Notes under the pieces: model-generated | What the model was told of the DNA's origin: nothing | Seen by the model: only the letters and a program-made list of their open reading frames with translations | The model's database searches: none | Source: a bacterium | Lineage (GTDB): Bacteria > Patescibacteriota > Minisyncoccia > Phycocordibacterales > UBA918 | Direction: 5' to 3' | Assembly (NCBI GenBank): GCA_043719295.1 | Contig: JAYSUD010000012.1 | Span: forward strand, 26,790-90,789 | DNA length: 64,000 nt | In this document: piece by piece, positions 9,631 to 62,700 of the stretch | How the letters are laid out: the number at the start of each line of letters is the position of its first letter | How positions within the stretch are numbered: the stretch's first letter is position 1 | Made by a program: the position numbers and the translations under genes

Positions 9631-11583
9631 TCATTCTTTAGCACGGACTACCCCTGAAGCATCGTTATTTCCACTTTCAGATGGAATCTTTGTCGTAATC
9701 GCGGGACTGGTATCACGCACGGTGGTACTGGTGAATCGGTCTGTTGCTTCAATGCGTTGTTCACTAATAAGTGTTGGAGTGGTGCCGATTTGAAGTGAAC
9801 GAGGTAAGAGTGAGACTTGGAAAGAGGTGTATGTTTCTTTGTTAGATTCAATGTTGCCTGCTTTCCACGTGATAGCTCTTGTTGTCGGATTGTATGTCAC
9901 AGCTCCATTACCTTCAACAATATTAAGCCATGATATATACGCTGGTAAGCTTGCTGTAACTACAGCATTCGTGACATTGTTTGAACCATTTTGTACTACA
10001 AGCGAAACAGTATATGTTGTTGCCTTGTCTGATACAGGAGGTACAGGACCCGTATCTTTGAAAATGCCGTTGTTGTAACTCACAACACCTACCAAGTTTG
10101 GCGCACTGACGACTTTGATAACACTTGCGGCAGTTCCTGTTAACTGTTCGGCAACTTGGTTTTCAGATACACGTCGTGCTTTTGCATTGACGTTAATGTT
10201 GACCTGTGGAGTTTGTGACACTTCTCCTGTTGGTTCGATACTAAAAGAAAGTCGTTCTGATTCTCCTGGAGTCACCTGCTCTAAACCTTGCGTATTTGAA
10301 ACATCCCACACGATAGTATTTTTCGCTTCATCAAAATAACCTCCTGAAGGACTCACTTCAGAAACTGAAAAAGCGTTACCTCCAAGTTTTACTTCAACGA
10401 TAATATCGTAGAGTGTATCGTCAAGGGAATTAGTTAAAGCAAGCTGTACGTTTGCTCGTTTACCAGGAGCTATTGCAACTTCAGACTTATCTGAATTATC
10501 AATTTTCATATCGATGTCTAAAAATGGTTGCTCGATTTTAAACTCAGTTTGTGCGGTTGCGAAAATTGAAGCAAGACTTTGCGGATCTTTTTCATTTGGT
10601 ACACCGACGGTAAAGTTAATGGCGTTGTCGTCACTCTCTTTTCCAACGACAATTCCCGCTATAGTGATTTTTGTTTCTTTTTCGGGTTCAAGATTTTTAA
10701 TAAGCCACATACTTTCGGTATGTGTTGGTGGTGGAGTTGCTTTTGTGAAATCAAACCCTTCTGGATATTCCGCTTTAACCAATATCTCAGAAAGAGCTGT
10801 TGGTGAGTTTGAAATAATAGTGAGAGTAACCTCAGTCTCTTGCCCTGAAGAGATTTTCTTTAACGTGTCAGCTCTGACAATAATGGGTGATGAACTAATT
10901 TTAAATCGCAACGGTTCTGCTTCTTTAAAAAAAGTAGCATTTGAACCTTGGACGCGATATTCGATTTCTACTTTCACAATCTTCTCTTCATTCTCTTCGC
11001 CAAAAACCAGCGCACGCATGGGGATGTTGACGGTCTCACCTTGTTTAATTGTTTGTAAGGGTAAACGTTCAGTGAATAACTCTTTACCTTCCTCAGTTAC
11101 TGACTTGGTTCCTTTAGGGTACTCAACGATAAGTACTGCTGATTCAATCGAGACTGAGTTGTCATTTGTGATACCAATCTGCATTTGAAGTTCCGATCCT
11201 CCCCCTACGGTAAAAGGTCCTGTAGCTGAAAGGGTGATGTTTTCTCCAGAAATACTTTTACCGCCAAACAGTAAGAAGAGACTTGAAACCACAATCGCTA
11301 GCATGAAAAAACCTAAGCCTGCAAATAAAATTTTAGATCGATATCCTTTTTTTCTTTTTTGCATACCTATGTCTTCTCTAAAACTTTGTGTGCTTTCCTC
11401 TGTAGTATAAACCTCTTGTACAGGAGGTAATACAATAGGTTTAGGCGGTTCTTGCCAAGAAGTAGGAGCCGTATGTACGACATCACTAAGCGGGTGACTG
11501 ACTGAAGACACTTTTTTTGTTCCCCGCTCATAAAGCCGTTTTCGCACTTCTTCAATACTTTCTTGATCTTTAATACCACTCAT
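9631..11583 (-). CDS. Large membrane-anchored extracellular protein (single N-terminal TM helix, beta-rich Ser/Thr/Val ectodomain)
   Basis: 650 aa with a cytoplasmic basic N-terminus, a TM segment ILFAGLGFFMLAIVVSSLFLLF, then long low-hydrophobicity repeats of T/S/V/N-rich beta-strand-like sequence. This is typical of CPR surface proteins. No catalytic motif found. Confidence 0.6.
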   Translation of the reverse strand: MSGIKDQESIEEVRKRLYERGTKKVSSVSHPLSDVVHTAPTSWQEPPKPIVLPPVQEVYTTEESTQSFREDIGMQKRKKGYRSKILFAGLGFFMLAIVVSSLFLLFGGKSISGENITLSATGPFTVGGGSELQMQIGITNDNSVSIESAVLIVEYPKGTKSVTEEGKELFTERLPLQTIKQGETVNIPMRALVFGEENEEKIVKVEIEYRVQGSNATFFKEAEPLRFKISSSPIIVRADTLKKISSGQETEVTLTIISNSPTALSEILVKAEYPEGFDFTKATPPPTHTESMWLIKNLEPEKETKITIAGIVVGKESDDNAINFTVGVPNEKDPQSLASIFATAQTEFKIEQPFLDIDMKIDNSDKSEVAIAPGKRANVQLALTNSLDDTLYDIIVEVKLGGNAFSVSEVSPSGGYFDEAKNTIVWDVSNTQGLEQVTPGESERLSFSIEPTGEVSQTPQVNINVNAKARRVSENQVAEQLTGTAASVIKVVSAPNLVGVVSYNNGIFKDTGPVPPVSDKATTYTVSLVVQNGSNNVTNAVVTASLPAYISWLNIVEGNGAVTYNPTTRAITWKAGNIESNKETYTSFQVSLLPRSLQIGTTPTLISEQRIEATDRFTSTTVRDTSPAITTKIPSESGNNDASGVVRAKE

Positions 11584-26719: not shown

Positions 26720-27166
26720 TTAAATTAATCCGATTACCTGTAGCTGAAGCAACACATGACGAGGATCATTCTCAAGAACCTTCTTGAGAGCTTGTTTGAC
26801 CTCTCTTTGCTGTGGAGCATCACTCAAGGGCTGTAGCCATGGGCCATTCATCTTTTCTGGAATGCTCATATCTTGAGGTATCACAACATAGAAGACATGA
26901 AGGTCTTTGTATTCAGAACCTCCTTTGAGCTTAAATTTTTTCAGATAGATAAGCTCCAGTCCAGACTCTAGCCTAAGACAACTTCCTAGTCTTAGTGCTG
27001 TATTTGTTAGACCTCTTTTAGAGAGTTGATCTTCTCCTGGGCAGTATTTTTTGAAGTAATCCGGAGAAAGCAGGAGTGGTCCGTTTTCATCGATGAAAAC
27101 AACCCATACTCGATTCCGACGCGCTTCACGTACACTACGCAGTTTTTGTACAAACTTTTTAATCAT
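26720..27166 (-). CDS. Hypothetical protein
   Basis: 148-aa ORF, basic N-terminus, no motif recognised. It lies last in the nucleotide-metabolism neighbourhood. Confidence 0.4.
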   Translation of the reverse strand: MIKKFVQKLRSVREARRNRVWVVFIDENGPLLLSPDYFKKYCPGEDQLSKRGLTNTALRLGSCLRLESGLELIYLKKFKLKGGSEYKDLHVFYVVIPQDMSIPEKMNGPWLQPLSDAPQQREVKQALKKVLENDPRHVLLQLQVIGLI

Positions 27167-27565
27167 TTGAAGGTTCCTTTGGTTGTTTTGTTATTACAAT
27201 AAACCGTGCGCCTCAGGCACATATACTCGTAAAGATCTTGAACTATTCCCTAAGACGACTGAACTCGTCTTTTCTTACCAAAAGAGCGATATATACAAAA
27301 AGCAGGCATATGCCTGCTTTTTGTATATCTTAGTCTAAATGTACTCAGACGTTAATTTACTTCACTCTAAAAACTTACAGTTTCAGTACACCTTGTCAGG
27401 ATTCTGTCCGACATTCGTCTCTAGAATCCTAGGCAAGGTCGGTAAGAGTGATATTAAATCACTCTTACCTCATACAGAGGCTGTATACCTTTTGGCTATT
27501 CTATTTCGGTTTCACCTCATAGAATTGCTCAAAAGCTCGGTGAAAGTGCATCAAAGCACCTTCAC

Positions 27566-27593
27566 TCCTTACAGGAGCAGTACACCTTTTGGA
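27566..27593. repeat. Copy of dispersed motif CTCCTTACAGGAGC(A/T)GTACACCTTT(T/C)G (also at 57336-57360; a related gtacaccttttgg motif lies at 59324-59338)
   Basis: Seen directly. It contains the CTCCTtacAGGAG mini-palindrome. It lies in the 475-bp non-coding gap after rplK. Confidence 0.5.
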
Positions 27594-27645
27594 TAGATTA
27601 TTTCGCAAAGCTCATAATCTACCTCAAAAGCTTCGTTAAAGTAAT

Positions 27646-28071
27646 TTAGATTACTTTAACGCCCATGCTTCGACAAGTACCCTCGATGATCTTCATAGCA
27701 GCTTCGATTGTCGCTGCGTTGAGGTCGGGCATTTTTATTTCTGCGATAGCTCGGATTTGGTCTTGTGTGATGTCCCCTACTTTAGAAGTAGCATTCTTTC
27801 CTGACCCTTTCTCCTTTCCAATAGCCTTAAGAATAAGACGTGATGCTGGAGAAGTCTTAAGGATAAATGAGAATGATCGGTCGTCAAATACAGTCAGTTC
27901 AACTGGCACCACCTCACCCATACGAGACTCACGAGTTTGCTCGTTGAATTGATTTACGAACTCACCAATGTTGATTCCCGCTTGTCCGAGTACTGGCCCT
28001 AACGGTGGAGCTGGTGTAGCTTTACCTCCTGTTGCCTGTACTTTAATCTTTTTTAATATCTTTTTTGCCAT
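27646..28071 (-). CDS. rplK: 50S ribosomal protein L11
   Basis: [35 protein letters not shown]... is the canonical L11 sequence. Confidence 0.95.
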
Positions 28072-28335
28072 GTTTTTTAATTATTTTTGTTGGTACACCA
28101 TTGCTCCATATGCAATGTTAACGTATACCTTGAAGCGTCGCTATACTACATAATATAAGGGCTTTTAGCAAGGATACGCGAATTTAGAATGTCTAATATT
28201 GGAATGAGGATGCTTAAAACTTTTTAAATTGGATGAATCGCGCGAAGCCTAGGTATTTTGAGAAAGAGCCGTAGTAGCCTACGGTGATTGAGCAAAATGC
28301 CGTAGCGACAAAGCGAGTCGCCGATTTTAAGAGCT

Positions 28336-28881
28336 TTACACCTTTCGGATTTGAAGAAAGTCTAATTCAACGGGTGTCTCCCTCCCAAAAATAGAAACCA
28401 GCACTTTAACTCGTCCACTTGCTTCATCAACTTCTCCTACCTTCCCTTCTACATCCTTAAACGGACCATCTGTAATAATGACTACATCATCTTGTGCAAA
28501 GTCGAGCTGATGTTTAACCAAACCATCGTTCATTCGTTTCATGAGTGCTTCGTACTCGGATTGAGCTAGCGGCACTGGTTGCGTTCCACTTCCAACGAAC
28601 CCTGTAACACGAGGAGTGTTTCGAACAATGTACCAAGACTCGTCATTTACAATCATGTCTACAAGTACGTATCCTGGATAGATTCGTTCTTCTTCAGTAA
28701 TACGCTTTCCTCCTTTAACGCGAATCTTTTTTTCAGTTGGAACAACTACGTCAAAAATCTGTGTCTCCATTCCAAGAGAATCAATACGTTGCTTGAGGTT
28801 ACGTGCAACTGCATTTTCGTACCCTGAGTAGGTGTGAATTGCATACCAGTGACGCTCACCGTCTGTTTGTTGTTTAGCCAT
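28336..28881 (-). CDS. nusG: Transcription termination/antitermination factor NusG
   Basis: NGN domain (HWYAIHTYSGYENAV) and C-terminal KOW (FKDVEGKVGEVDEASGRVKVLVSIFGRETPVEL). Confidence 0.95.
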   Translation of the reverse strand: MAKQQTDGERHWYAIHTYSGYENAVARNLKQRIDSLGMETQIFDVVVPTEKKIRVKGGKRITEEERIYPGYVLVDMIVNDESWYIVRNTPRVTGFVGSGTQPVPLAQSEYEALMKRMNDGLVKHQLDFAQDDVVIITDGPFKDVEGKVGEVDEASGRVKVLVSIFGRETPVELDFLQIRKV

Positions 28882-29075: not shown

Positions 29076-29228
29076 GAAATTGTAATTAATTGAATAAAAT
29101 TGTTGGTTTAAAAAAACACCCTTTCGGGAGATTTATTCTATTATACCATGCATTATAAAAATACACAAAGGGCGACATGTTGTCGCCCTTTGGGGTTTTT
29201 ATAGTCGCTTCAGATGTGTGGAGTTAAC

Positions 29229-38239: not shown

Positions 38240-38419
38240 AACGTTCGAGAGTTTGCTGTGTCGATATAAACTGAGTTAACAGAGCGTTCGGGACGTCCAG
38301 CAGTTTTTGTTGAACATAATGTTGCACACGGCTAGCGCCGAGGTGCAACATTATGTTCTTGGTCAGCAGCAGAAACTGGGAACGAAATTCGCCATTGTCG
38401 CTACGCTCTGTGGCTCATT
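38240..38419 (-). ncRNA. Structured intergenic element copy E2 (directly abuts the TGA stop of nrdB)
   Basis: Outer arms are the same as E1 (ACGTCCAGCAGTTT...GAAACTGGGAACG). The inner 16-bp perfect stem GAACATAATGTTGCAC/GTGCAACATTATGTTC surrounds loop ACGGCTAGCGCCGAG. It ends ...GTCGCTACGCTCTGTGGCTCATT-TCA(stop). It has a 38-nt partial duplication at its 5' side. Confidence 0.45.
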
Positions 38420-39427
38420 TCACCACTCAAGTGACCCTCCAGTCTTATACTCCGTCACTTTTGTTTCGAAGAAGTTTTTTTCTTTTGGCATATCGATTAC
38501 TTCGGCCATCCATGGGAATGGGGATGCGGTGTTGTATTGCAATGGCAATCCAAGTCGTTCAAAACGACGATCTGCGATGTACTCAATGTACTCTTTTACA
38601 CTCTTTGGATTAAGACCTAAGATTCCCTTTGGCATTGCGTCATCAACGTATGTTTGTTCAAGTACCACAGCCTGCATAATCTTGGCAGTAATGTCAGCTT
38701 TGAATTCTTCAGACCAAATTTCAGGATTCTCTGCTTTGATTGTATTAATGAGGTCAATTCCAAACGCCAAGTGAATGGATTCATCTCGCAAGATGTACTG
38801 GAACTGGTCTGAGATACCTGGCATTTTGTTTTGACGCTTAAGTGACAGCATCATTGCAAAACCAGCATAGAAGAAGATTCCTTCCATGATGACATAGAAT
38901 CCAATGAGATCGTGGACAAACTTCTGAATATTTTCTGCAGAGTCAGTCTTGAAATTTGGATCAAATACTGACTTCGTGAAATCAACTACAAAATCGTCTT
39001 TTGCTTTAATTGATGGAATAGTCTCATACATGTTGTATATCTCATCTGGGTCAAGACCAAGTGAATCACAACAATAAATGAACGTATCTGTATGGATTGC
39101 TTCTTCGTATGCTTGTCGCAATAAAAACTGTCGTGATTCTGGGTTGGTTACATGACTGTATACTGCAAGCACTAAGTTGTTTGCCGTGAGTGATTCTGCA
39201 GTTGAGAAGAATCCCAAGTTCCACAAAATCATTCGTCGTTCGTCTTCTGAGAGTCCATCAGGACCTTGTTTCTTCCAGAGTTCGATATCAAGTTGCATTG
39301 AAATCTCATCGGGAGTCCAGTTGTTTGCAACTCCTGCTTTATAGTGTTCACGTGCCCACTTGTACTTCATGGGAAGTATTTTGTTCGGGTCGGTTGATGA
39401 ATTATTGATGATTCCTTTTTTTTCCAT
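38420..39427 (-). CDS. nrdB: Ribonucleotide reductase class Ia small subunit (R2)
   Basis: EEAIHTD...ESIHLAFG iron ligands and the overall R2 pattern. 335 aa. Confidence 0.9.
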   Translation of the reverse strand: MEKKGIINNSSTDPNKILPMKYKWAREHYKAGVANNWTPDEISMQLDIELWKKQGPDGLSEDERRMILWNLGFFSTAESLTANNLVLAVYSHVTNPESRQFLLRQAYEEAIHTDTFIYCCDSLGLDPDEIYNMYETIPSIKAKDDFVVDFTKSVFDPNFKTDSAENIQKFVHDLIGFYVIMEGIFFYAGFAMMLSLKRQNKMPGISDQFQYILRDESIHLAFGIDLINTIKAENPEIWSEEFKADITAKIMQAVVLEQTYVDDAMPKGILGLNPKSVKEYIEYIADRRFERLGLPLQYNTASPFPWMAEVIDMPKEKNFFETKVTEYKTGGSLEW

Positions 39428-42725: not shown

Positions 42726-43247
42726 GATGAATTGGTGAGGGTTAGTAAAGTGCTTCTGGGGTTATACAGAAGCTGTATGGGTGATCTCTCACAAAAATAA
42801 TTGGTGGTGTTGTATAACGTGCACATTTGGAGATGTATGCACGCCCAATTATTTTTAAGAAAGATCCATTTTTAGAGAGTTAAAGACAACCCCATGTGGC
42901 TATACATGGTGTGTGCAAGCGTGTGACTTGCATAGTTGCGTGTCGTACCTCTCTTTTGACACACTCGGTTTGGAGACCCGAAGTGGTTACCTATGATAAT
43001 AAGTCACTCGTAAACAATTGCCAAATATGCCTACAAACATATGTATTGTGTATAAAAAAATATACTCAAAAAATTATCTGTTGCAAAATATACACGCTTT
43101 GGCGAAGCAATTTAGTTTTGAGATTGAAGCCCTTGTGGATAACAATTAAAGTCTGTATTGCGCAAGTAGAAGTGTGTGTGTTGTGATATTTTTTGACATT
43201 AAAAAGTGGAGCAAATGCTCCACTTTTTACTTCATCTTGTATCTCTT

Positions 43248-46453: not shown

Positions 46454-46947
46454 ATGGTCGAAGTTACTTGCAAACAGTGCTCAAAGTTATTTAATGCTAA
46501 ACCATCTTGGATTAAAAATGGGTATGGTAAATTTTGTTCTCGTGAGTGTGGCCATAAAGCAAATCGTACAGGTAAAGTAGTGACCTGTTTTATCTGCAGT
46601 AAGGAGGTTTATAAACAAGGTAAAGCCTTAAAAGGTTCTAAGAGTGGTAAATTTTTTGTTCAAAATCATGTCAGACAAAATGGAGAAATACTGAGTTTAT
46701 TGCAGAAAAACATGCTAATTGGAAAGGTGGTTTGCACGCATATCGAAGAATAAAAACGCAAAGTGGTGACATACAAATTTGTACCATATGCAAAATTACC
46801 GACAAGAGAGTGCTCGCTGTACACCACATCGATCAGAATAGAAAAAACAATACCATTGAAAATCTTGCCTGGTTGTGCCACAATTGCCACCACCTTGTCC
46901 ATCACTACAAAGAAGGGCAAGATTCACTTATGGCGGCTATGGTATAA
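46454..46947 (+). pseudogene. HNH endonuclease disrupted by a frameshift in a T6 homopolymer (46652-46657); 3' end overlaps tRNA-His
   Basis: Frame A (46454-46753) encodes FCSRECGHKANRTGK zinc-ribbon-like repeats. Frame B, from ~46651 to the TAA at 46945-46947, encodes FCSKSCQTKWRNTEFIAEKHANWKGG...AVHHIDQNRKNN...LCHNCHHLVH (HNH motif). The two frames join if the T6 run were T7. Confidence 0.6.
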
Positions 46948-47004
46948 TGGCTATTACTGGAGCTTGTGGAGCTCTCAATCCGAGTTCAATCCTCGGTAGC
47001 CGCC
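46931..47004 (+). tRNA. tRNA-His (GTG) with encoded G-1 and C73
   Basis: Cloverleaf folds. Acceptor gGCGGCTA/TAGCCGCc, anticodon stem GGAGC/GCTCT with loop TTGTGGA, T-arm CCGAG-TTCAATC-CTCGG. Confidence 0.85.
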
Positions 47005-47008
47005 CACG

Positions 47009-47035
47009 AGAAAAAGTCCCTTCGGGGATTTTTTT
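47009..47035 (+). terminator. Intrinsic terminator after tRNA-His (AAAAAGTCCCTTCGGGGATTTTTTT)
   Basis: Seen directly. Confidence 0.7.
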
Positions 47036-47036
47036 G

Positions 47037-47196
47037 TGGGCGGTTAAGAAACTGCCCTACGGCAGTTTCGTCCGGGAATTGAAAGGCGGAGTCATGTCGC
47101 TTGCGACAGACGAGTCAGGGTCGTGAGCGATATTGAAACAAGGAGACTTGCGACTATGTTTCAAATCGACTCCTGACCAATTCCCGGTAGCCGCCC
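47037..47196 (+). ncRNA. ~160-nt structured element closed by an acceptor-like helix GGGCGG/CCGCCC and ending with a 13-nt copy of the tRNA-His 3' end (CGGTAGCCGCCCA); candidate small RNA or att-site scar
   Basis: Nested helices are seen directly: CCGGGAATTG(47071-80)/CAATTCCCGG(47177-86), AAACTGCC/GGCAGTTT, GGAGTC/GACTCC, TTGAAACA/TGTTTCAA. A T-rich run follows at 47197-47215. Confidence 0.3.
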
Positions 47197-47341
47197 AATT
47201 TTTTGAGATTTTTTTACAGCGCATTTTAGATCTCTTTTTTGTATCTATTGTACTCAGTTGAACCCTGTGCAATTTCTATAAATAACCAGTGACCGTGATC
47301 TTCCTGTCATACGCATAAAGCTATTTACAATACTTGTGTTG

Positions 47342-56733: not shown

Positions 56734-57165
56734 CTACTCAATATCTGACTGTACTTGTAATAACATCGCTTTTGCCCTGTCGTGCGACAGACGTTCAGAA
56801 GCCTCTCTAAAAGTAAACCACCCTGCTTCTTTAACTTCTTCTTCTTGAATGACAAAGTTCGCGTCAGTAATTATCCCAATATAGTAAAGAACTTTTTTAT
56901 GAATTATTGTCCCTTCATAGGGAAATGTATATTCTTGGGTATACACAACGTCAGTTTTAAGTTCTTTTGGTACCAAACCTGTTTCTTCAAATAATTCCCG
57001 CAAAGCCCCCTCTTCTTGTGTCTCCCCTACTTCAGGATGACCCTTAGGGAAGGTCCAATATATATCGTTAGCAAGACCGTGTTGATGAATTAGAAAAACT
57101 TTCCATTGAACTTGGTCTTTTAAAAGCGGAATGACTCCGAAAGAAATATCCTCTTTGTGTTCCAT
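56734..57165 (-). CDS. Nudix hydrolase
   Basis: Nudix box GHPEVGETQEEGALRELFEETGL. Confidence 0.8.
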   Translation of the reverse strand: MEHKEDISFGVIPLLKDQVQWKVFLIHQHGLANDIYWTFPKGHPEVGETQEEGALRELFEETGLVPKELKTDVVYTQEYTFPYEGTIIHKKVLYYIGIITDANFVIQEEEVKEAGWFTFREASERLSHDRAKAMLLQVQSDIE

Positions 57166-57232
57166 TAGTATGCAGTATACAGGTTAGAATAGTTTAGACT
57201 ATAGGACTCACATAAACGGCACACTTCTTCCA

Positions 57233-57314
57233 TACAGGAACTGTTCAGGTTGTAAGATATTTCTACAAAATATCGACAACCTTTTAAACAATGACACTGC
57301 GTCATTGTTTAACG
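57233..57314. repeat. Hairpin repeat family A, copy 1 (ACAGGAACTGTTCAGGTTGTAAGATATTT-loop-AAAATATCGACAACCT plus a TTAAACAATGAC/GTCATTGTTTAA hairpin)
   Basis: Seen directly. It has 14-16-bp inverted arms, AGGTTGT(a/c)(a/g)GATATTT / AAATATC(g/a)ACAACCT. Confidence 0.55.
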
Positions 57315-57452
57315 TTGTGCTACACAAAAATACTCCTCCTTACAGGAGCTGTACACCTTTCGCATAGACATGCTCAAGGTCTTGCGAAACTCCAAGTATT
57401 CGTTTCTCACACCGTACTATGCGTACGACTCGTCCTATTTTGTTTGCCTTTC

Positions 57453-57538
57453 TTACAGGAACTGTTCAGGTTGTATGATATTTTTCCAAAAAATCGACAA
57501 CCTCTTGAACAGTGACATCAAGTCACCGTTCAACCTTG
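57453..57538. repeat. Hairpin repeat family A, copy 2
   Basis: ttacaggaactgttcaggttgtatgatatttttccaaaaaatcgacaacctcttgaacagtgacatcaagtcaccgttcaaccttg. Confidence 0.55.
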
Positions 57539-57584
57539 AATTGCACTCGATTATGTGAGCCCTATGCAGCGTGAGTGATATACT

Positions 57585-58313
57585 TTGACTATGAAAAAGA
57601 AGCGTCCAAAAATGCATCCGTTTGTAGATGCTCTTGAAAACCCAAAGTCAAAATACTTTGTCCTTTCAAACGACGTACTTGCACTCGCTACAGTAGTTTC
57701 AGTATTTGCTATTGTGCTTGAGACCGTGCCCTCACTCTCTTCGTATCACACTGTCTACATCACCATTGAATATATTGCGACCGTTCTGTTTACTCTAGAA
57801 TACAGCGCCCGTTTTATTGGTGCCAAGCATAAACTCAAGTATATTTTCAGTTTCTTTGGACTCATTGATCTTCTCGCAATTGCGCCTACATACCTTGGTT
57901 TTGGAAATTACACATTCTTAAAAACAGTTCGTTCATTACGCATCGTTCGGCTTCTTCGAATCATTCGACTCACCCGAATGTCTAAGCTTAAAAAGAAAGA
58001 AGGAACTTCTTCTCTGTACGCACTTAACATCCAAATATATGCAATTACCCTCGGTACTGCTGTGCTGATTCTTGGAACACTGTTTTACATCTTTGAGGGT
58101 GATTACTCTTATGCACAGGACATCCCTTCAGGTATGTATTGGGTATTTAAAGCAATTATCGGTGGGGTCTCTTACCCACAACCAATAACAACGGGGGGTA
58201 CGGTAGTACTTATCCTCGCACGCTTCTCAAGCATGATTCTCTTAGGACTTATGATGAGCCTCGTTGCAACTATGATGCGCAAAATATTAATTGGTTCAGA
58301 GAAGGATTCTTAG
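57585..58313 (+). CDS. Voltage-gated-like ion channel family protein (ion_trans fold)
   Basis: S4-like segment RSLRIVRLLRIIRLTRMSKL with Arg at every third position. A pore-like region follows. Confidence 0.65.
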   Translation: MTMKKKRPKMHPFVDALENPKSKYFVLSNDVLALATVVSVFAIVLETVPSLSSYHTVYITIEYIATVLFTLEYSARFIGAKHKLKYIFSFFGLIDLLAIAPTYLGFGNYTFLKTVRSLRIVRLLRIIRLTRMSKLKKKEGTSSLYALNIQIYAITLGTAVLILGTLFYIFEGDYSYAQDIPSGMYWVFKAIIGGVSYPQPITTGGTVVLILARFSSMILLGLMMSLVATMMRKILIGSEKDS

Positions 58314-58493
58314 AAAACAACAATCACATCCGTACAGATGCGATTGTTATTTTTGTGCCCCTAGTCGGTACCGAAAAAATACCCAGAAAGCCCCACAAGG
58401 GTTTCCGAGTGACTCAGGTCGCTCTTTCTTGACCCCTCTTGGTAGTGTATAGATTTCCTCAATTAGCATATTTAGAATGGTATTATTAATAGG

Positions 58494-59291
58494 ATGGAAA
58501 CAGAATCTGACACCACAGAATTAGAACAAGAAAAGCAAAGGAATTTTGCAATTTTATATAAAAGCACACGATTTTCGAAATATCTCGCAATAGTATTATT
58601 TATCTCATCGCCATTTGCTGGTGGGTGGATTGGGTATACCTACGCACCAGAGAGAGTGATGGAGATAGGGAGGGCTGTTGAGCAGGCAGTGGAGACAGAT
58701 CTGAGCAGTGATGAAAGAAATAAGATTCTGATTAGAGAGAATTTGGCTAATGATTTAAAAATTAATCAAGGACAGGAACAATTTCCTCGTGTACTTGATG
58801 AACCTAATGGGTTTGACCCCTATGCTAATGACCCCAAAGCCAGAAACTTGAATATAAACGGCCTCTCATTTACCAATATTAGCAGAAGTCGTGCACTCAC
58901 GACTATCGATTTTGGTCTAAATAGATTTACAGACGAACAAGTTAATGTATCTGGAAACTTTGAATTATGGTTTGATCAGATGTTTGGAAAACTGGTTTTA
59001 CGATTTCTGCCAGATGATGAAACGCAGAGAATATTGCCTTGGCCTAGTACAAATTCTGACCCCTACGACAAGTATTTAGTCGTTATTAATGACACAGATT
59101 ATTCACTTGCAGACCTATGCGACAGTACTTGCGAGATTGAATTATCCAATTCTGAGGATCAAAGATTGATAACATATTCTGGGTCAGCAATGATTGAGTC
59201 TGTTACCCTAGAAATTCAGAATATAGGTGTAGATTCTTTTGGCTCAAGCATCAAGTTATACGAGATGGTTTTGGTTAAGAAGGAGATATAG
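58494..59291 (+). CDS. Hypothetical membrane-anchored protein
   Basis: N-terminal TM (YLAIVLFISSPFAGGWIGYTY) followed by a soluble domain. No motif recognised. Confidence 0.45.
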   Translation: METESDTTELEQEKQRNFAILYKSTRFSKYLAIVLFISSPFAGGWIGYTYAPERVMEIGRAVEQAVETDLSSDERNKILIRENLANDLKINQGQEQFPRVLDEPNGFDPYANDPKARNLNINGLSFTNISRSRALTTIDFGLNRFTDEQVNVSGNFELWFDQMFGKLVLRFLPDDETQRILPWPSTNSDPYDKYLVVINDTDYSLADLCDSTCEIELSNSEDQRLITYSGSAMIESVTLEIQNIGVDSFGSSIKLYEMVLVKKEI

Positions 59292-59369
59292 TGCCCTCGT
59301 TAGGACTTGAACATTACATGTTCAGTACACCTTTTGGATATTTTTCCTTCGTCAAAATATCTCAAAAGG

Positions 59370-59420
59370 TTTTCAAGTCCTGACGTAAAGCATAGAAATG
59401 CTTTACTTCCCGGGACAGGA
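59370..59420. repeat. Repeat B copy 1: inverted tRNA-Leu 3'-end-derived motif (TTCAAGTCCTG-[hairpin insert]-CCCGGGACAGG)
   Basis: On the plus strand it reads like the tRNA-Leu T-arm/acceptor 3' side with a 26-nt hairpin inserted. The second copy is at 59483-59530. Confidence 0.45.
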
Positions 59421-59435
59421 ATCTTTTTCTCTACG

Positions 59436-59484
59436 AGAACTGTACAGGTTGTCGATATTTTCTTTAAAAATATCAGACAACCTT
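59436..59484. repeat. Hairpin repeat family A, copy 3
   Basis: gagaactgtacaggttgtcgatattttctttaaaaatatcagacaacctt. Confidence 0.55.
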
Positions 59485-59530
59485 TTCAAGTCCTGACGTG
59501 ATGTGTCCCACACATCACTTCCCGGGCACA
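59483..59530. repeat. Repeat B copy 2
   Basis: ttttcaagtcctgacgtgatgtgtcccacacatcacttcccgggcaca. Confidence 0.45.
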
Positions 59531-59556
59531 AAAAAATCCCCGTAGGGATTTTATTT
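59530..59556 (-). terminator. Intrinsic terminator immediately after tRNA-Leu (minus strand)
   Basis: AAAAAAATCCCCGTAGGGATTTTATTT on plus. The minus-strand reading gives a hairpin and then a T-run. Confidence 0.55.
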
Positions 59557-59557
59557 G

Positions 59558-59639
59558 TGCCCGGGACAGGACTTGAACCTGCACACCTTTCGGCTTATCC
59601 ACCTCAAGGATAAATGTCTACCAATTTCAACACCCGGGC
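59558..59639 (-). tRNA. tRNA-Leu (GAG), long variable arm
   Basis: The revcomp gives GCCCGGGTGTTGAAATTGGTAGACA-TTTATCC-TTGAGGT-GGATAAG-(long var arm)-GCAGGTTCAAGTCCTGT-CCCGGGCA. The anticodon loop TTGAGGT gives GAG. 82 nt. Confidence 0.85.
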
Positions 59640-59695
59640 AATTACTCTTACGAGTTGAGCTATTATGCATTAAACTCTTCCAGTATTCAAGGAAA

Positions 59696-59728
59696 AGAAA
59701 AAATCCCCTTTCGGGGATTTTTCTTGTG
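59696..59728 (-). terminator. Intrinsic terminator after rplS (AAAAAATCCCCTTTCGGGGATTTTTC)
   Basis: Seen directly. Confidence 0.65.
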
Positions 59729-61181: not shown

Positions 61182-61454
61182 TTAAAACTTGATTGAAAAA
61201 TCATCACCTATTTTCTTTGTGGTACGCCAGTCTACCGACACTCCTTCAACTTTTGCCTGTAATGAACCTTCACAGAGATATTCAACAAAGTCTTTAAGTT
61301 GATCTGGCAGTCCTTGTGCACACACTGCAACAGTCCCATCAGGTAGGTTTTGTACGTACCCAGTGATACCAAGAGTTGTGGCCGAAACTTGTACATAATC
61401 TCGATATCGAACATTCTGCACTTTCCCAGTCACAATGCAATAGATTTCAGTCAT
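61182..61454 (-). CDS. acyP: Acylphosphatase
   Basis: IVTGKVQNVRYRDYV and GYVQNLPDGTVAV motifs. 90 aa. Confidence 0.8.
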   Translation of the reverse strand: MTEIYCIVTGKVQNVRYRDYVQVSATTLGITGYVQNLPDGTVAVCAQGLPDQLKDFVEYLCEGSLQAKVEGVSVDWRTTKKIGDDFSIKF

Positions 61455-62113
61455 ATATTTTGTATTTCTTTTACTTTATCAAGCCAACCCATAAGTCGAA
61501 AGAAAAATTTTGTGTCATGAACATATATTTGTACAGTGCCATTGGGTAATGTATTCCTCTTATTTTTACTTGCACTACTTTTTTTCGAGTATGTCTTATA
61601 AAAATAATTTCTTGATATGCCAGATACCCCAGACCAATATGCTTCTGCTTTTTCGATATTACGATGCGAAAAAGTATGTACCTGACCACGAAATTTTTCT
61701 TCTGTTATTCCACCACATTCTCTAAAGAAACGCATCATCGTAGTAATTACTGCAGGATCACTGTTAGACAAACGAGCAGTCTGTTGAGTTTTTCCTCCTT
61801 CACCCCAATACAAAGCAACACCTATGCACCATAACATATTTTGTGAAAGCAGGGGCACTTCCAAAGAAGCTTCAGTCATTATTTTTTCTCTGCGCTTCTG
61901 CGTATTTGCAACTTTTGAAATTCGGCGTTTTTCAATAGCATCTATACTATGTCCATTTTTATTAAGTTTTGTGCGTTGTTTAGAAGTAAGTACAACATCA
62001 CGAACCCAACAACTAACACTACTTTTCGCAACACCTAAAATAGATGCAATCTCACCCATAGATTTACCACTCTTACGTAACATAATCGCATCATGTTGTT
62101 CTTTTGTCTTCAT
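61451..62113 (-). CDS. HTH-domain protein with C-terminal LAGLIDADG-like endonuclease-like region; 92 bp upstream of tRNA-Val
   Basis: N-terminal KSGKSMGEIASILGVAKSSVSCWVRDV (HTH). The central LWCIGVALYWGEGGKT resembles a single LAGLIDADG motif (L.G...GDG). The C-terminal Lys-rich region is typical of that fold's DNA-binding saddle. Confidence 0.4.
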   Translation of the reverse strand: MKTKEQHDAIMLRKSGKSMGEIASILGVAKSSVSCWVRDVVLTSKQRTKLNKNGHSIDAIEKRRISKVANTQKRREKIMTEASLEVPLLSQNMLWCIGVALYWGEGGKTQQTARLSNSDPAVITTMMRFFRECGGITEEKFRGQVHTFSHRNIEKAEAYWSGVSGISRNYFYKTYSKKSSASKNKRNTLPNGTVQIYVHDTKFFFRLMGWLDKVKEIQNI

Positions 62114-62205: not shown

Positions 62206-62278
62206 GCGCGATTAGCTCAGTTGGTAGAGCAATTCGTTTACACCGAAAAGGTCGGGGGTTCAAGTCCCTCATCGCGCA
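62206..62278 (+). tRNA. tRNA-Val (TAC)
   Basis: GCGCGAT-TA-GCTCAGTTGGTAGAGC-A-ATTCG-TTTACAC-CGAAA-AGGTC-GGGGGTTCAAGTCCCTC-ATCGCGC-A. Anticodon TAC. Confidence 0.85.
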
Positions 62279-62286
62279 CTTTTATG

Positions 62287-62317: not shown

Positions 62318-62410
62318 TAAACAGTCGCAAGAGACTTGAAAAGCTTTTGTGGAATTTTATGAGTGAAGCGAAATAAAATACCCAAAAGGTATACCGATTC
62401 AGTATGAATC

Positions 62411-62430
62411 AAGTCCCTCATCGCGCACAA
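62411..62430 (+). repeat. 20-nt direct copy of the tRNA-Val 3' end (TCAAGTCCCTCATCGCGCAC), 133 bp downstream of the tRNA
   Basis: Identical to 62260-62279, seen directly. A terminator-like hairpin follows it, as one follows the tRNA. Confidence 0.6.
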
Positions 62431-62661
62431 AACGTCAAGAAAAACAGTCCCTGCGGACTGTTTTTTAGTTTTGTGAAGCGGAGACATGTTTTGCTCTTTT
62501 CCAGAGCAAAACAGTCGAGCTGGGGCAGCTAAGTTCTTATGAACGTAGTGAATTAGAAACTTGCGCCAAAAGAAAATACTTTCGGTTCTTACCGAAGGTT
62601 TTTTTATGTAAGCAGAGAGGCGAGAAAAGGTTGACTGATACTTTCTGGATTTTACAAACAG

Positions 62662-62700
62662 AAATATCGACAACCTGTACTGAACATGTAATGTTCAGCT
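62662..62700. repeat. Hairpin repeat family A, partial copy 4, fused to the GTACTGAACATGTAATGTTCAGC hairpin (inverse copy at 59308-59334)
   Basis: aaatatcgacaacctgtactgaacatgtaatgttcagc. Plus-strand 59308-59336 reads gaacattacatgttcagtacacctttt. Confidence 0.5.

Follow-up and report, generated by a model that had tools for sequence, protein, structure and literature searches.

A strand-specific three-hairpin repeat associated with tRNA genes and gene ends in Parcubacteria

The stretch of DNA analysed here, 64,000 nt of contig JAYSUD010000012.1 (assembly GCA_043719295.1, positions 26,790 to 90,789) and referred to throughout as the window, carries a repeated structured element in four of its intergenic gaps. 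In total 10-11 copies, or units, are present and run head to tail within these gaps. The gap that follows rplK has three (27368-27665), as does the gap separating the divergent NUDIX and ion-channel genes (57225-57536), and two each trail tRNA-Leu (59307-59525) and tRNA-Val (62321-62698). A preliminary description of the window had reported at least four copies of a hairpin repeat together with several companion motifs. The hairpin repeats are real, with every motif found where it had been placed, and the picture of a composite stem-loop element that is dispersed among non-coding gaps and concentrated close to tRNAs holds. The repeat is indeed multi-copy, but the count was too low, as nine units were recovered by a covariance model and a further one (U2) by eye and hairpin scan. 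The companion motifs do not form separate families; together with the scattered hairpins they follow one another within a single modular unit of ~85-110 nt. On the folded strand this unit reads 5'-(G)GUGAG-P3-CGCAAGA-P2-GUACWG-P1-3', where P1 is a 4-6-bp stem with a GUA (UGUAA) loop and the base of P2 is ACCUU/AAGGU or AGGUU/AACCU. Read on the + strand, the order is a 4-5-bp P1 hairpin with a constant (T/A)TACA loop and a stem that varies among copies, CWGTWCA, a long P2 hairpin beginning CCTTTTGG or GGTTGT, and a P3 hairpin of 8-12 bp.

The covariance model (R1) was built from 48 units of other genomes, none of them from the window, and recovered the nine window units with E-values of 7e-16 to 1e-5. 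The canonical form is U5 (57333-57413, - strand; 66.6 bits, E 7e-16), laid out as GGUGUGAG-P3(GAAUACUUGGA loop)-CGCAAGACC...GGUGUACAG-CUCCUGUAAGGAG. It is flanked by U6 (57446-57536, - strand; 53.0 bits), the first unit of the ion-channel/NUDIX array, and by U4 (57225-57315, - strand; 46.3 bits), which has a P2 of the GGUUGU...ACAACC type and lies nearest the start of the NUDIX gene (57165). U4 and U6 correspond to a 91-nt direct repeat (57227-57317 and 57448-57538) of 81% identity. Behind rplK, U3 (27562-27665, - strand; 54.9 bits) uses the last rplK codons as the 5' strand of its P3, with the rplK stop codon (27646-27648) inside the P3 loop. The adjoining U2 (27466-27563, - strand) is a divergent copy with the core GUAUACAG and a P1 of CCUC-UGUAU-GAGG, which was identified by hairpin scan, folding and eye and is not called as a whole unit by R1. 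The last unit of this tandem, U1 (27368-27472, - strand; 47.6 bits, E 7e-11), folds into P3-P2-GUACUG-P1 and is followed by a bidirectional terminator near 27300-27330. U8 (59424-59525, - strand; 48.3 bits) lies directly behind tRNA-Leu(gag) and its terminator and bears an insertion, GGACUUGAA, between P3 and P2. The next unit, U7 (59307-59413, - strand; 44.9 bits), when folded imitates the tRNA-Leu T-arm with an outer helix, AGGACUUGAA/UUCAAGUCCU. The two + strand units are U10 (62321-62412; 28.1 bits, E 1e-5), which is located between tRNA-Val and a duplicate of the tRNA-Val 3' end and has the tRNA terminator in place of P3, and U9 (62605-62698; 29.7 bits, E 4e-6), which is convergent with an amidotransferase gene. 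At the level of motifs, AAATATCGACAACCT is found exactly at 57268, 59446 (- strand) and 62662 and with one mismatch at 57489, and ACAGGAGCWGTACACCTTT has four window matches at up to three mismatches, compared with none in 100 shuffles. A core-like fragment (GAGCTTTACACCTTTCGGAT) at the nusG stop codon (28331-28350) and an isolated palindrome, TACAGAAGCTGTA (42761-42781), are not called by the model, and may be a decayed unit and a chance match.

The strand on which the repeat had originally been written is not the one that folds best. Its complement folds more stably (RNAfold) in 8/9 window units, in 105/116 units of other genomes with a mean gain of 4.7 kcal/mol, and in 103/118 metagenome units. 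The consensus pairs include 63 G-U against 25 A-C, i.e. the fold belongs to one strand. In an alignment of 118 metagenome units (A2), standard pairs fill 94.1% of cells compared with 71.5% in shuffles, and none of 500 shuffles reaches the observed value, with the pairing counts somewhat inflated by the fitting of this alignment to the structure of the model. Changes on both sides are seen in 23/23 consensus pairs, and covariation scores 0.567, compared with 0.149 in shuffles and no more than 0.106 with the partners slid. P1 was outside the search pattern, yet a GUA-loop hairpin is present in 101/113 units, built from at least 40 different stems. The unpaired GUGAG, CGCAAGA and GUACWG junctions and the GUA loop are nearly invariant, and the copies are alike chiefly in their fold and these junction bases. 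It is the fold rather than the overall sequence that is kept, and the fold is under selection. Pairing of the 5' flank with the 3' flank, which would close canonical units, gives a weak signal (-10.3 vs -9.1 kcal/mol, ~2.8 sd), and such a helix is seen in some units only. A promoter on the + strand (TTACAG, 17 nt, GATATT) was considered and rejected, because relatives do not conserve its putative -10 box and the stem beside it shows covariation.

The preliminary description had named a simple local duplication, with copies confined to this locus, as what would refute it; instead, at least 240 other loci were found. A scan of one genome per species with the pattern YTCCWTACAGGARCWGTWCASSTT, which is 24 nt long, degenerate and carries ~43 bits (fewer than one chance match estimated), returned at least 120 loci, and a metagenome scan with P1 left free (CGCAAGACCTT N20-50 AAGGTGTAC) returned at least 120 more. 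Among the matches listed, the named genome-scan loci are nearly all from Patescibacteria, comprising Paceibacterota, Nomura-, Zambryski-, Kaiser-, Taylor-, Lloyd- and Azambacteria, and metagenome-assembled genomes (MAGs) labelled 'uncultured Ca. Saccharibacteria' also appear. One locus labelled Acidimicrobiales (L024, JBLIMJ010000002.1) contains two units with 37-43% G+C; it is probably a mis-binned Patescibacteria contig inside an actinobacterial MAG. The element is specific to Paceibacteria/Parcubacteria, and is kept over a class-level clade rather than being specific to one genome. Its density is 10-11 units in the 64-kb window and 8-11 in 92.5 kb of five syntenic relatives (L252-L256, 86-94% L11 identity); around the seeded genome loci there is about one extra unit per 30 kb, giving overall roughly one copy per 6-30 kb. 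Phage origin was rejected, given that none of the 10 viral-contig matches has the hairpins and several recur with identical flanks, and these matches were taken as coding or chance.

Could the units be ordinary intrinsic terminators, or the product of chance or local duplication? They are rich in hairpins and found at the ends of genes, and U4 and U6 form an adjacent duplicate pair. P1 is not followed by a U-tract (T makes up 6-25% of positions +1 to +5), conventional terminators adjoin the units, and among units between co-directional open reading frames (ORFs; at least 120 codons on each side) 31 are sense and 26 antisense, so that direction is independent of the genes. Together with the number of other loci, these observations refute this explanation, which has virtually no likelihood of being correct.

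No match to a known RNA family was obtained. Among 4227 Rfam families, only four tRNAs reach the gathering threshold in the window, and at E-values up to 10 nothing relevant was returned for 57100-59700, which includes five units, or for 46900-47300, which includes a second element type described below. ARAGORN calls no unit a tRNA or tmRNA, and no description of such an element was found in the literature searched on Patescibacteria repeats and tRNA-trailing RNAs. The element matches no described RNA or transposon family, and is new in that no earlier description was found in Rfam or the literature searched. A self-cleaving ribozyme, or a dedicated RNA-processing signal that sets tRNA and mRNA 3' ends in enzyme-poor organisms, might be expected to look like this: a small junction of several helices in which ~25 unpaired bases are conserved while the stems vary freely, present in many copies and tandem arrays across a phylum-level group, at gene ends and behind tRNAs. 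Such a distribution is typical of hammerhead and twister ribozymes. Against this stand the missing Rfam ribozyme match at E-values up to 10 in 57100-59700 and a direction that is independent of flanking protein genes, with catalysis being putative only, and a ribozyme or processing signal is very unlikely. The orphan structured RNA motifs of Weinberg et al. 2017 (PMC5737381) are likewise defined by covariation, have conserved junctions and no known function, and are restricted to particular taxa; in contrast to these motifs the present unit has no Rfam match, many more copies per genome than most, and signatures of insertion. Two other kinds of RNA were compared and set aside: the TIGR-Tas arrays of Candidate Phyla Radiation (CPR) bacteria and phages consist of 36-nt box C/D-type units and are unrelated (PMC12045711), and the group I introns in Patescibacteria tRNAs occupy anticodon-loop sites, are detectable with Rfam and are not this element (PMC13011429).

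Signs of insertion were found at many loci. At one of these (L118) a 58-nt segment is tandemly doubled, with one copy empty and the other filled (A-B beside A-unit-B), and the inserted unit begins exactly at TGAG and stops where P1 ends. Of all units, 27% are flanked by direct repeats of 10 nt or more, compared with 2% of mismatched controls, and these repeats extend from 10 nt to at least 40 nt in an automated scan and to 87 nt by inspection. The 87-nt repeat (L146) is the start of a P-loop kinase gene. Others are a 35-nt repeat of the msrA start (L107), of which an older, diverged version exists in L082, a 26-nt repeat of the start of an apparent RNase HII gene, recognized by eye from its N-terminal sequence (L213), and a 21-nt repeat read as the 3' end of 5S rRNA (L161). 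The 5' parts of tRNAs are duplicated at L216 and L053, and units lie inside fragments of tRNA-Phe (L015) and tRNA-Thr (L053) with the intact genes alongside, the unit in the tRNA-Phe pseudo-copy following GAGG. In every case of gene-end duplication, an intact gene is found beside the unit-carrying fragment. Units are also nested within the second element type (L133, L071 and L089). Purines make up 70-84% at positions -3 to -1 ahead of GUGAG and 88% at position +1 following P1, a preference that also fits a tandem unit following the GGAG end of the preceding P1. At the two msrA loci (L107:3280-3450, - strand; L082:245-480, + strand) the 3' strand of P1 is AAGGAG, which could act as the ribosome-binding site of that gene because it lies 11-14 nt ahead of the regenerated msrA start codon.

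The preliminary description had likened the repeats to MITEs (miniature transposable elements with inverted repeats) or repetitive extragenic palindromes (REPs), and had pointed to terminal inverted repeats, target-site duplications and a transposase of the IS200/IS605 kind as features to look for. The signatures of insertion bear out part of this likeness: the empty and filled pair, the excess of flanking repeats and the duplicated tRNA, 5S rRNA and gene ends. The remainder is not supported. Terminal inverted repeats are absent (the best identity over 12 nt is 0.39, vs 0.44 for shuffled ends, n=162), flanking repeats exist but there is no target duplication of fixed length, with lengths and layouts varying, the copies lack the overall sequence identity of a young MITE or REP, and specificity to one genome is not seen. 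MITEs, Correia/CREE elements, the pneumococcal BOX and RUP elements and the Rickettsia palindromic elements (RPEs) resemble the unit in being ~100-150 nt, non-coding, dispersed and foldable as RNA; RPEs also land in genes and BOX is also modular. What marks these elements is terminal inverted repeats, a target duplication of short fixed length, or high overall identity within one genus, whereas the unit has no terminal inverted repeats, has flank duplications of 10-87 nt, is spread over a phylum-level group and shows a likeness between copies that lies largely in fold and junctions. The REPs and bacterial interspersed mosaic elements (BIMEs) with REP-associated tyrosine transposases (RAYTs) in Proteobacteria share other features with the unit. 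Like the present units, they are extragenic hairpin elements that occur in many copies at gene ends, cluster in tandem and have no terminal inverted repeats. In both cases the form that is read is probably a folded single strand, and a share of the copies is fixed and of plausible use to the host. In contrast, REPs are single imperfect palindromes of 20-40 nt that have a conserved 5' tetranucleotide, are specific to a species or genus, and are not tied to tRNA 3' ends or to long flank duplications, while the unit has three hairpins within 85-110 nt and junctions that are kept class-wide.

On the reading that goes with the enzyme named in the preliminary description, a Y1 HUH transposase, of a REP/RAYT or IS200/IS605-derived system, would recognize the hairpins as single-stranded DNA and spread them. 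Strand-specific hairpins close to both ends of the unit, the absence of terminal inverted repeats and the conserved GUAC 5' of P1 would suit such an enzyme, and the family exists in these bacteria. A 224-aa Y1 protein is encoded at L012 (6122-6894; Pfam Y1_Tnp E 2e-15, NCBIfam REP_Tyr_transpos 73 bits), its gene bracketed by duplicated tRNA-Ser, and 2132 homologues at E <= 1e-10 show that this Y1/RAYT-like family is widespread in Parcubacteria, with lengths of 223-225 aa and 68-80% identity among the best 120 of these homologues. These genes carry a different repeat. At four Y1 loci (L257-L260, around 10001-10672) every gene has inverted repeats of its own, AATGGGGACAGYCACSATT, on both sides, which sometimes form clusters of 3-5 and are found solely beside Y1 genes (5/260 loci); in the window there is one poor, chance-like match with three mismatches. 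Model R1 finds no unit in 82.7 kb around the four genes, and a Y1 gene is present in 1 of ~250 unit-bearing loci. Moreover, insertion of IS200/IS605 elements makes no target duplication, in contrast to the flank duplications seen here, and the direction of the units follows GC skew weakly. Because there is neither adjacency nor a shared repeat, a link to IS200 or RAYT systems is not supported; the enzyme might conceivably act in trans, but this origin is highly improbable. As a separate observation on the Y1 genes, those of L258 and L260 are located within RHS/YD-shell toxin loci, and L259 and L260 contain two copies each.

Linkage to tRNA genes is a further property of the element. In the genome loci, 51/148 core motifs lie within 400 nt of a tRNA, 43/51 of them on the same strand, and in 34 the tRNA is directly upstream. 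Any tRNA isoacceptor may adjoin a unit, and at least 15 tRNA species are involved. Over all loci, unit and adjacent tRNA run in the same direction in 72 cases and in opposite directions in 11 (87% same), and adjacent units agree in 31 cases and disagree in two. The tRNA-linked units typically begin 10-50 nt past the tRNA. Since local GC skew agrees with direction in 63% of units and 63% of tRNAs alike, shared replication orientation cannot explain the tRNA linkage, and a replication-oriented single-stranded DNA element was ruled out as the cause of the co-orientation. Shortened forms consisting of just ...AAAAGGUGUACWG and P1 (L060:1444-1585, L114:480-620, L115:888-1029, L065:4918-4985, L096:7599-7691) sit 10-45 nt from tRNA genes, on the opposite strand beside tRNA-Ile(gat).

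The tRNA-linked loci share an ordered layout. The tRNA is followed by a palindromic terminator, an inverted copy of the 3' strand of the acceptor stem, P3, an inverted copy of the T-loop and the T-stem 3' strand, P2, GUACWG, P1 and finally a direct copy of the tRNA 3' end (10-30 nt). The inverted and direct copies can pair, thereby clamping the unit in a helix that resembles an acceptor/T-arm minihelix. Clamp copies that have diverged from the tRNA have diverged jointly, as seen at L101 and in an element behind tRNA-His in the window. The clamp itself is thus maintained, because its two copies diverge together and independently of the tRNA. Both tRNAs with units in the window illustrate the layout. 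Behind tRNA-Leu(gag) (59557-59639, - strand), which is trailed by U8 and U7, an inverted copy of the acceptor 3' strand, GUGCCCGGGA (59520-59529, - strand), directly follows the terminator and forms with it a long palindrome reaching into the tRNA. A direct copy of the tRNA-Leu 3' end, UCCUGUCCCGGG (59409-59420, - strand), is located between U8 and U7, and a degenerate copy, GUUCAAGUCCUaaCgaGGGCAC (59291-59312, - strand), overlaps the 3' end of the U7 model match (59307). Behind tRNA-Val(tac) (62206-62279, + strand), trailed by U10 and U9, an exact 20-nt direct copy of the tRNA 3' end (62260-62279) was found at 62409-62428 on the + strand; it overlaps the last 4 nt of the U10 model match and extends 16 nt beyond it. 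The duplication of the tRNA-Val end noted previously is therefore present, with its coordinates corrected. Terminator hairpins that extend into the tRNA were observed at 59528-59566, at 47006-47046 and at many other loci; in these palindromes an inverted repeat of the acceptor 3' strand and trailer comes immediately after the terminator, giving near-perfect arms of roughly 20-35 nt that compete with the acceptor stem.

Duplicated tRNA ends are also the hallmark of tyrosine-integrase islands, in which the 3' end is repeated downstream of an intact tRNA, sometimes in serial copies, and the units might accordingly be leftover ends of integrase elements that repeatedly entered tRNA 3' ends and were later deleted. 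An exact 16-nt downstream direct copy of the tRNA's own 3' end accompanies 27/156 tRNAs, mostly 90-280 nt away, and the copies behind tRNA-Leu are serial and progressively decayed. Such attachment-site remnants are nevertheless extremely improbable as the source of the units. An 'island' of ~130 nt, at least 15 tRNA species for one element family, and units located in the starts of protein genes, at the end of 5S rRNA and remote from any tRNA all set the units apart from integrase islands, and RNA-type covariation is unexpected for integrase arm sites. No integrase is present among the top 25 of 124 families listed for the flanking genes, nor in three islands of 2-3 kb that were scanned. The larger islands between a tRNA and a distant copy of its 3' end (L012, L077 and L101) contain ordinary genes and were discarded.

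The clamp is not restricted to this unit. Among tRNAs without a recognized unit, an inverted copy 9 nt or more in length is nonetheless present in 35%, and many of these carry a second inner module. In the window this second kind of tRNA-trailing element lies behind tRNA-His (46933-47005), at 47038-47196 on the + strand, where the same clamp (inverted GGGCGGTTA and TCCGGGAATTG, direct AATTCCCGGTAGCCGCCC) encloses a different module of ~95 nt with the form GGCGGAGUC...GGGUCGUGAGC...CUCCUGACC. The module also follows tRNAs in seven other loci (L050, L053, L093, L048, L126, L034 and L069), and 41 loose matches were found in 1.7 Mb, 11 of them just behind a tRNA on the same strand. A third structured repeat was observed at 29150-29380 and 38200-38432, both on the - strand. 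Its copies, of ~150 nt each, are 80% identical and differ at nine compensatory pairs, adjoin the 3' ends of the SIMPL and ribonucleotide-reductase small-subunit genes, and have no Rfam match; similar sequence adjoins units in L056 and L057.

Near protein-coding genes the units show a different relationship to direction, as given by the sense and antisense counts above, and the gaps on either side of such units are often just ~40 nt. The 150 flanking ORFs are housekeeping-like, as are 51 ORFs scanned in the window, with no transposase among the 25 commonest families listed for the latter. Beside the tRNA-Val repeats, a 220-aa protein (61451-62113, - strand) has a weak N-terminal HTH_23 match (E 2e-4) and a faint likeness to the helix-turn-helix of IS630/IS3 transposases (E ~0.003-0.008, far below cut-offs), and no catalytic domain was detected in it. 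Long-term retention was seen after rplK, where in four of the five syntenic relatives a unit occupies the matching place, with the stop codon in the P3 loop. In these units changes in the coding strand are matched by the 3' strand of P3, and the base of P2 switches between CC/GG, GG/CC and CU/AG. The same arrangement exists in at least eight further loci, and units also recur after SIMPL and beside msrA. A stop codon in the P3 loop is not a general rule, being found in 13/45 cases, mainly rplK orthologues and a few others. It had been suggested that the repeats may have driven the loss of rplA, which does not follow rplK (27166-27646) in the window. The gene is equally missing after rplK in 5/5 syntenic relatives, and because one of these (L256) has neither a unit there nor rplA, the absence of rplA is independent of the repeats. 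Parcubacteria lacking L1 were reportedly described by Brown et al. 2015, and the missing rplA fits this.

These observations bring into consideration a multi-copy family of small structured RNA genes, transcribed with tRNAs or in the same manner. Units could be released from the minihelix-like scaffold by tRNA-processing enzymes, the junction would bind a conserved protein, tRNA or ligand, and the flank duplications would be by-products of tRNA gene duplication. In agreement with this are the strong covariation and the class-wide retention of unpaired junction bases, the strand-specific fold, the common direction of 87% of units with nearby tRNAs and their typical start shortly past them, clamp helices that co-vary independently of the tRNA, the position after rplK, SIMPL and msrA that is kept across genera, and a CATAAT box read by eye ~8 nt upstream of U6. 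Other features are difficult to accommodate. Of the units located between co-directional genes, about half run antisense, and because the gaps beside these are just ~40 nt per side there is no room for a promoter; no promoter motif exists at a fixed upstream distance, and tRNA-linked copies are usually preceded by a strong terminator. A trans-acting RNA would not be expected to have dozens of old paralogues that are each retained at their own locus, and the empty and filled pair and the insertions in gene fragments would need a separate explanation. Owing to the long-term positional conservation, the maintained tRNA-like clamps and the phylum-wide conservation of the junctions, a family of RNA genes is a genuine possibility and the chief alternative to the reading preferred below, though on balance an unlikely one.

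We tentatively prefer to read the element as a structure-defined, strand-specific insertion repeat that is partly fixed and possibly co-opted, with a probability that we place a little short of even. This reading is favoured because it alone accounts for the empty and filled pair, the duplicated gene ends, the nesting of units within other elements and their indifference to the direction of protein genes. The family itself, its fold and strand, its linkage to tRNAs, its defined ends and flank duplications and the lack of a nearby enzyme among the families listed are direct observations; that the element moves by way of a single-stranded intermediate, what this intermediate is, and co-option are what we infer from them. 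Under the proposed mechanism the element would be a non-autonomous insertion repeat that is recognized and copied through its three-hairpin fold on one strand instead of through terminal inverted repeats. The copied form would be single-stranded, either RNA from tRNA-linked copies or single-stranded DNA; a template switch during replication is a further candidate for this intermediate stage. Insertion would occur just after purine-rich sites, in the 3' part or T-loop of tRNAs, in 5S rRNA and in the first codons of protein genes, while insertion at the end of the P1 of another unit would produce tandem arrays. The insertions that survive would be those with a duplicated gene end, leaving an intact gene and a unit-carrying fragment. 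Copies, once fixed, would persist for long periods with their stems kept by compensatory change, and because the stems of persisting copies are kept in this way, it is suggested that some of them were co-opted as local RNA 3'-end or tRNA-trailer structures.

Several observations weigh against the element being an insertion repeat. The duplication layouts, which include D-U-D, A-B-A-U-B and a unit within a pseudo-copy, fit no single known transposition chemistry. No transposase, integrase or reverse transcriptase is recurrent among the top 25 families listed (of 124) for the flanking ORFs, and the Y1 genes of these bacteria are, as described, bracketed by repeats of their own. Group II introns are absent from Patescibacteria in a published survey (PMC13011429), which removes one obvious source of reverse transcriptase, and no A-tail follows P1. 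The position that the rplK unit keeps in many genomes and its compensatory changes speak for a function in the host and against selfish spread. Near-identity is not seen among the dispersed copies in the window, with only the adjacent U4 and U6 reaching 81%, and they give no sign of a recent burst. Finally, the G-U asymmetry on which the strand assignment partly draws is moderate (~2.5 to 1), and the inflation of the A2 pairing counts noted above belongs on the same side.

Among known mobile elements, IS200/IS605 elements share the one-strand hairpins and the missing terminal inverted repeats but not the flank duplications, and no Y1 gene is linked to the units. Eukaryotic tRNA-derived short interspersed nuclear elements (SINEs) share more. 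Both are short, non-autonomous and tied to tRNAs, with a conserved 3' stem-loop and RNA-like defined ends, and both have target duplications of variable length and a random direction relative to genes. Unlike SINEs, the unit has no A-rich tail and no known reverse transcriptase partner, none being present among the families listed, and an RNA intermediate is hypothetical. To our knowledge, no bacterial SINE has been described. It is conceivable that the element is a bacterial counterpart of a tRNA-linked SINE, in which master copies would be transcribed behind tRNAs in the minihelix scaffold, processed to an RNA of ~95 nt and copied back at purine-rich nicks with variable target duplications; as a variant, the processed RNA would be a new tRNA-mimicking functional RNA or ribozyme of the CPR. 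We regard this more specific proposal as decidedly unlikely.

Parcubacteria genomes are among the smallest and most streamlined in bacteria, yet tens of copies of the element are retained. Should the element be mobile, it would be a new type of prokaryotic repeat, with a fold read from one strand, aimed at tRNA genes and gene ends and served by no known enzyme, and it would point to an undiscovered copying mechanism in the CPR. Should it instead be a family of RNA genes, it would be among the most abundant uncharacterized structured RNAs in this part of the bacterial tree, and the mimicry of the acceptor/T-arm would suggest a role in tRNA metabolism. The element explains duplicated fragments of tRNAs, 5S rRNA and gene starts that could confuse the annotation of MAGs. 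The covariance model serves as a taxon-specific marker, and the well-defined ends of the unit would allow direct experiments.

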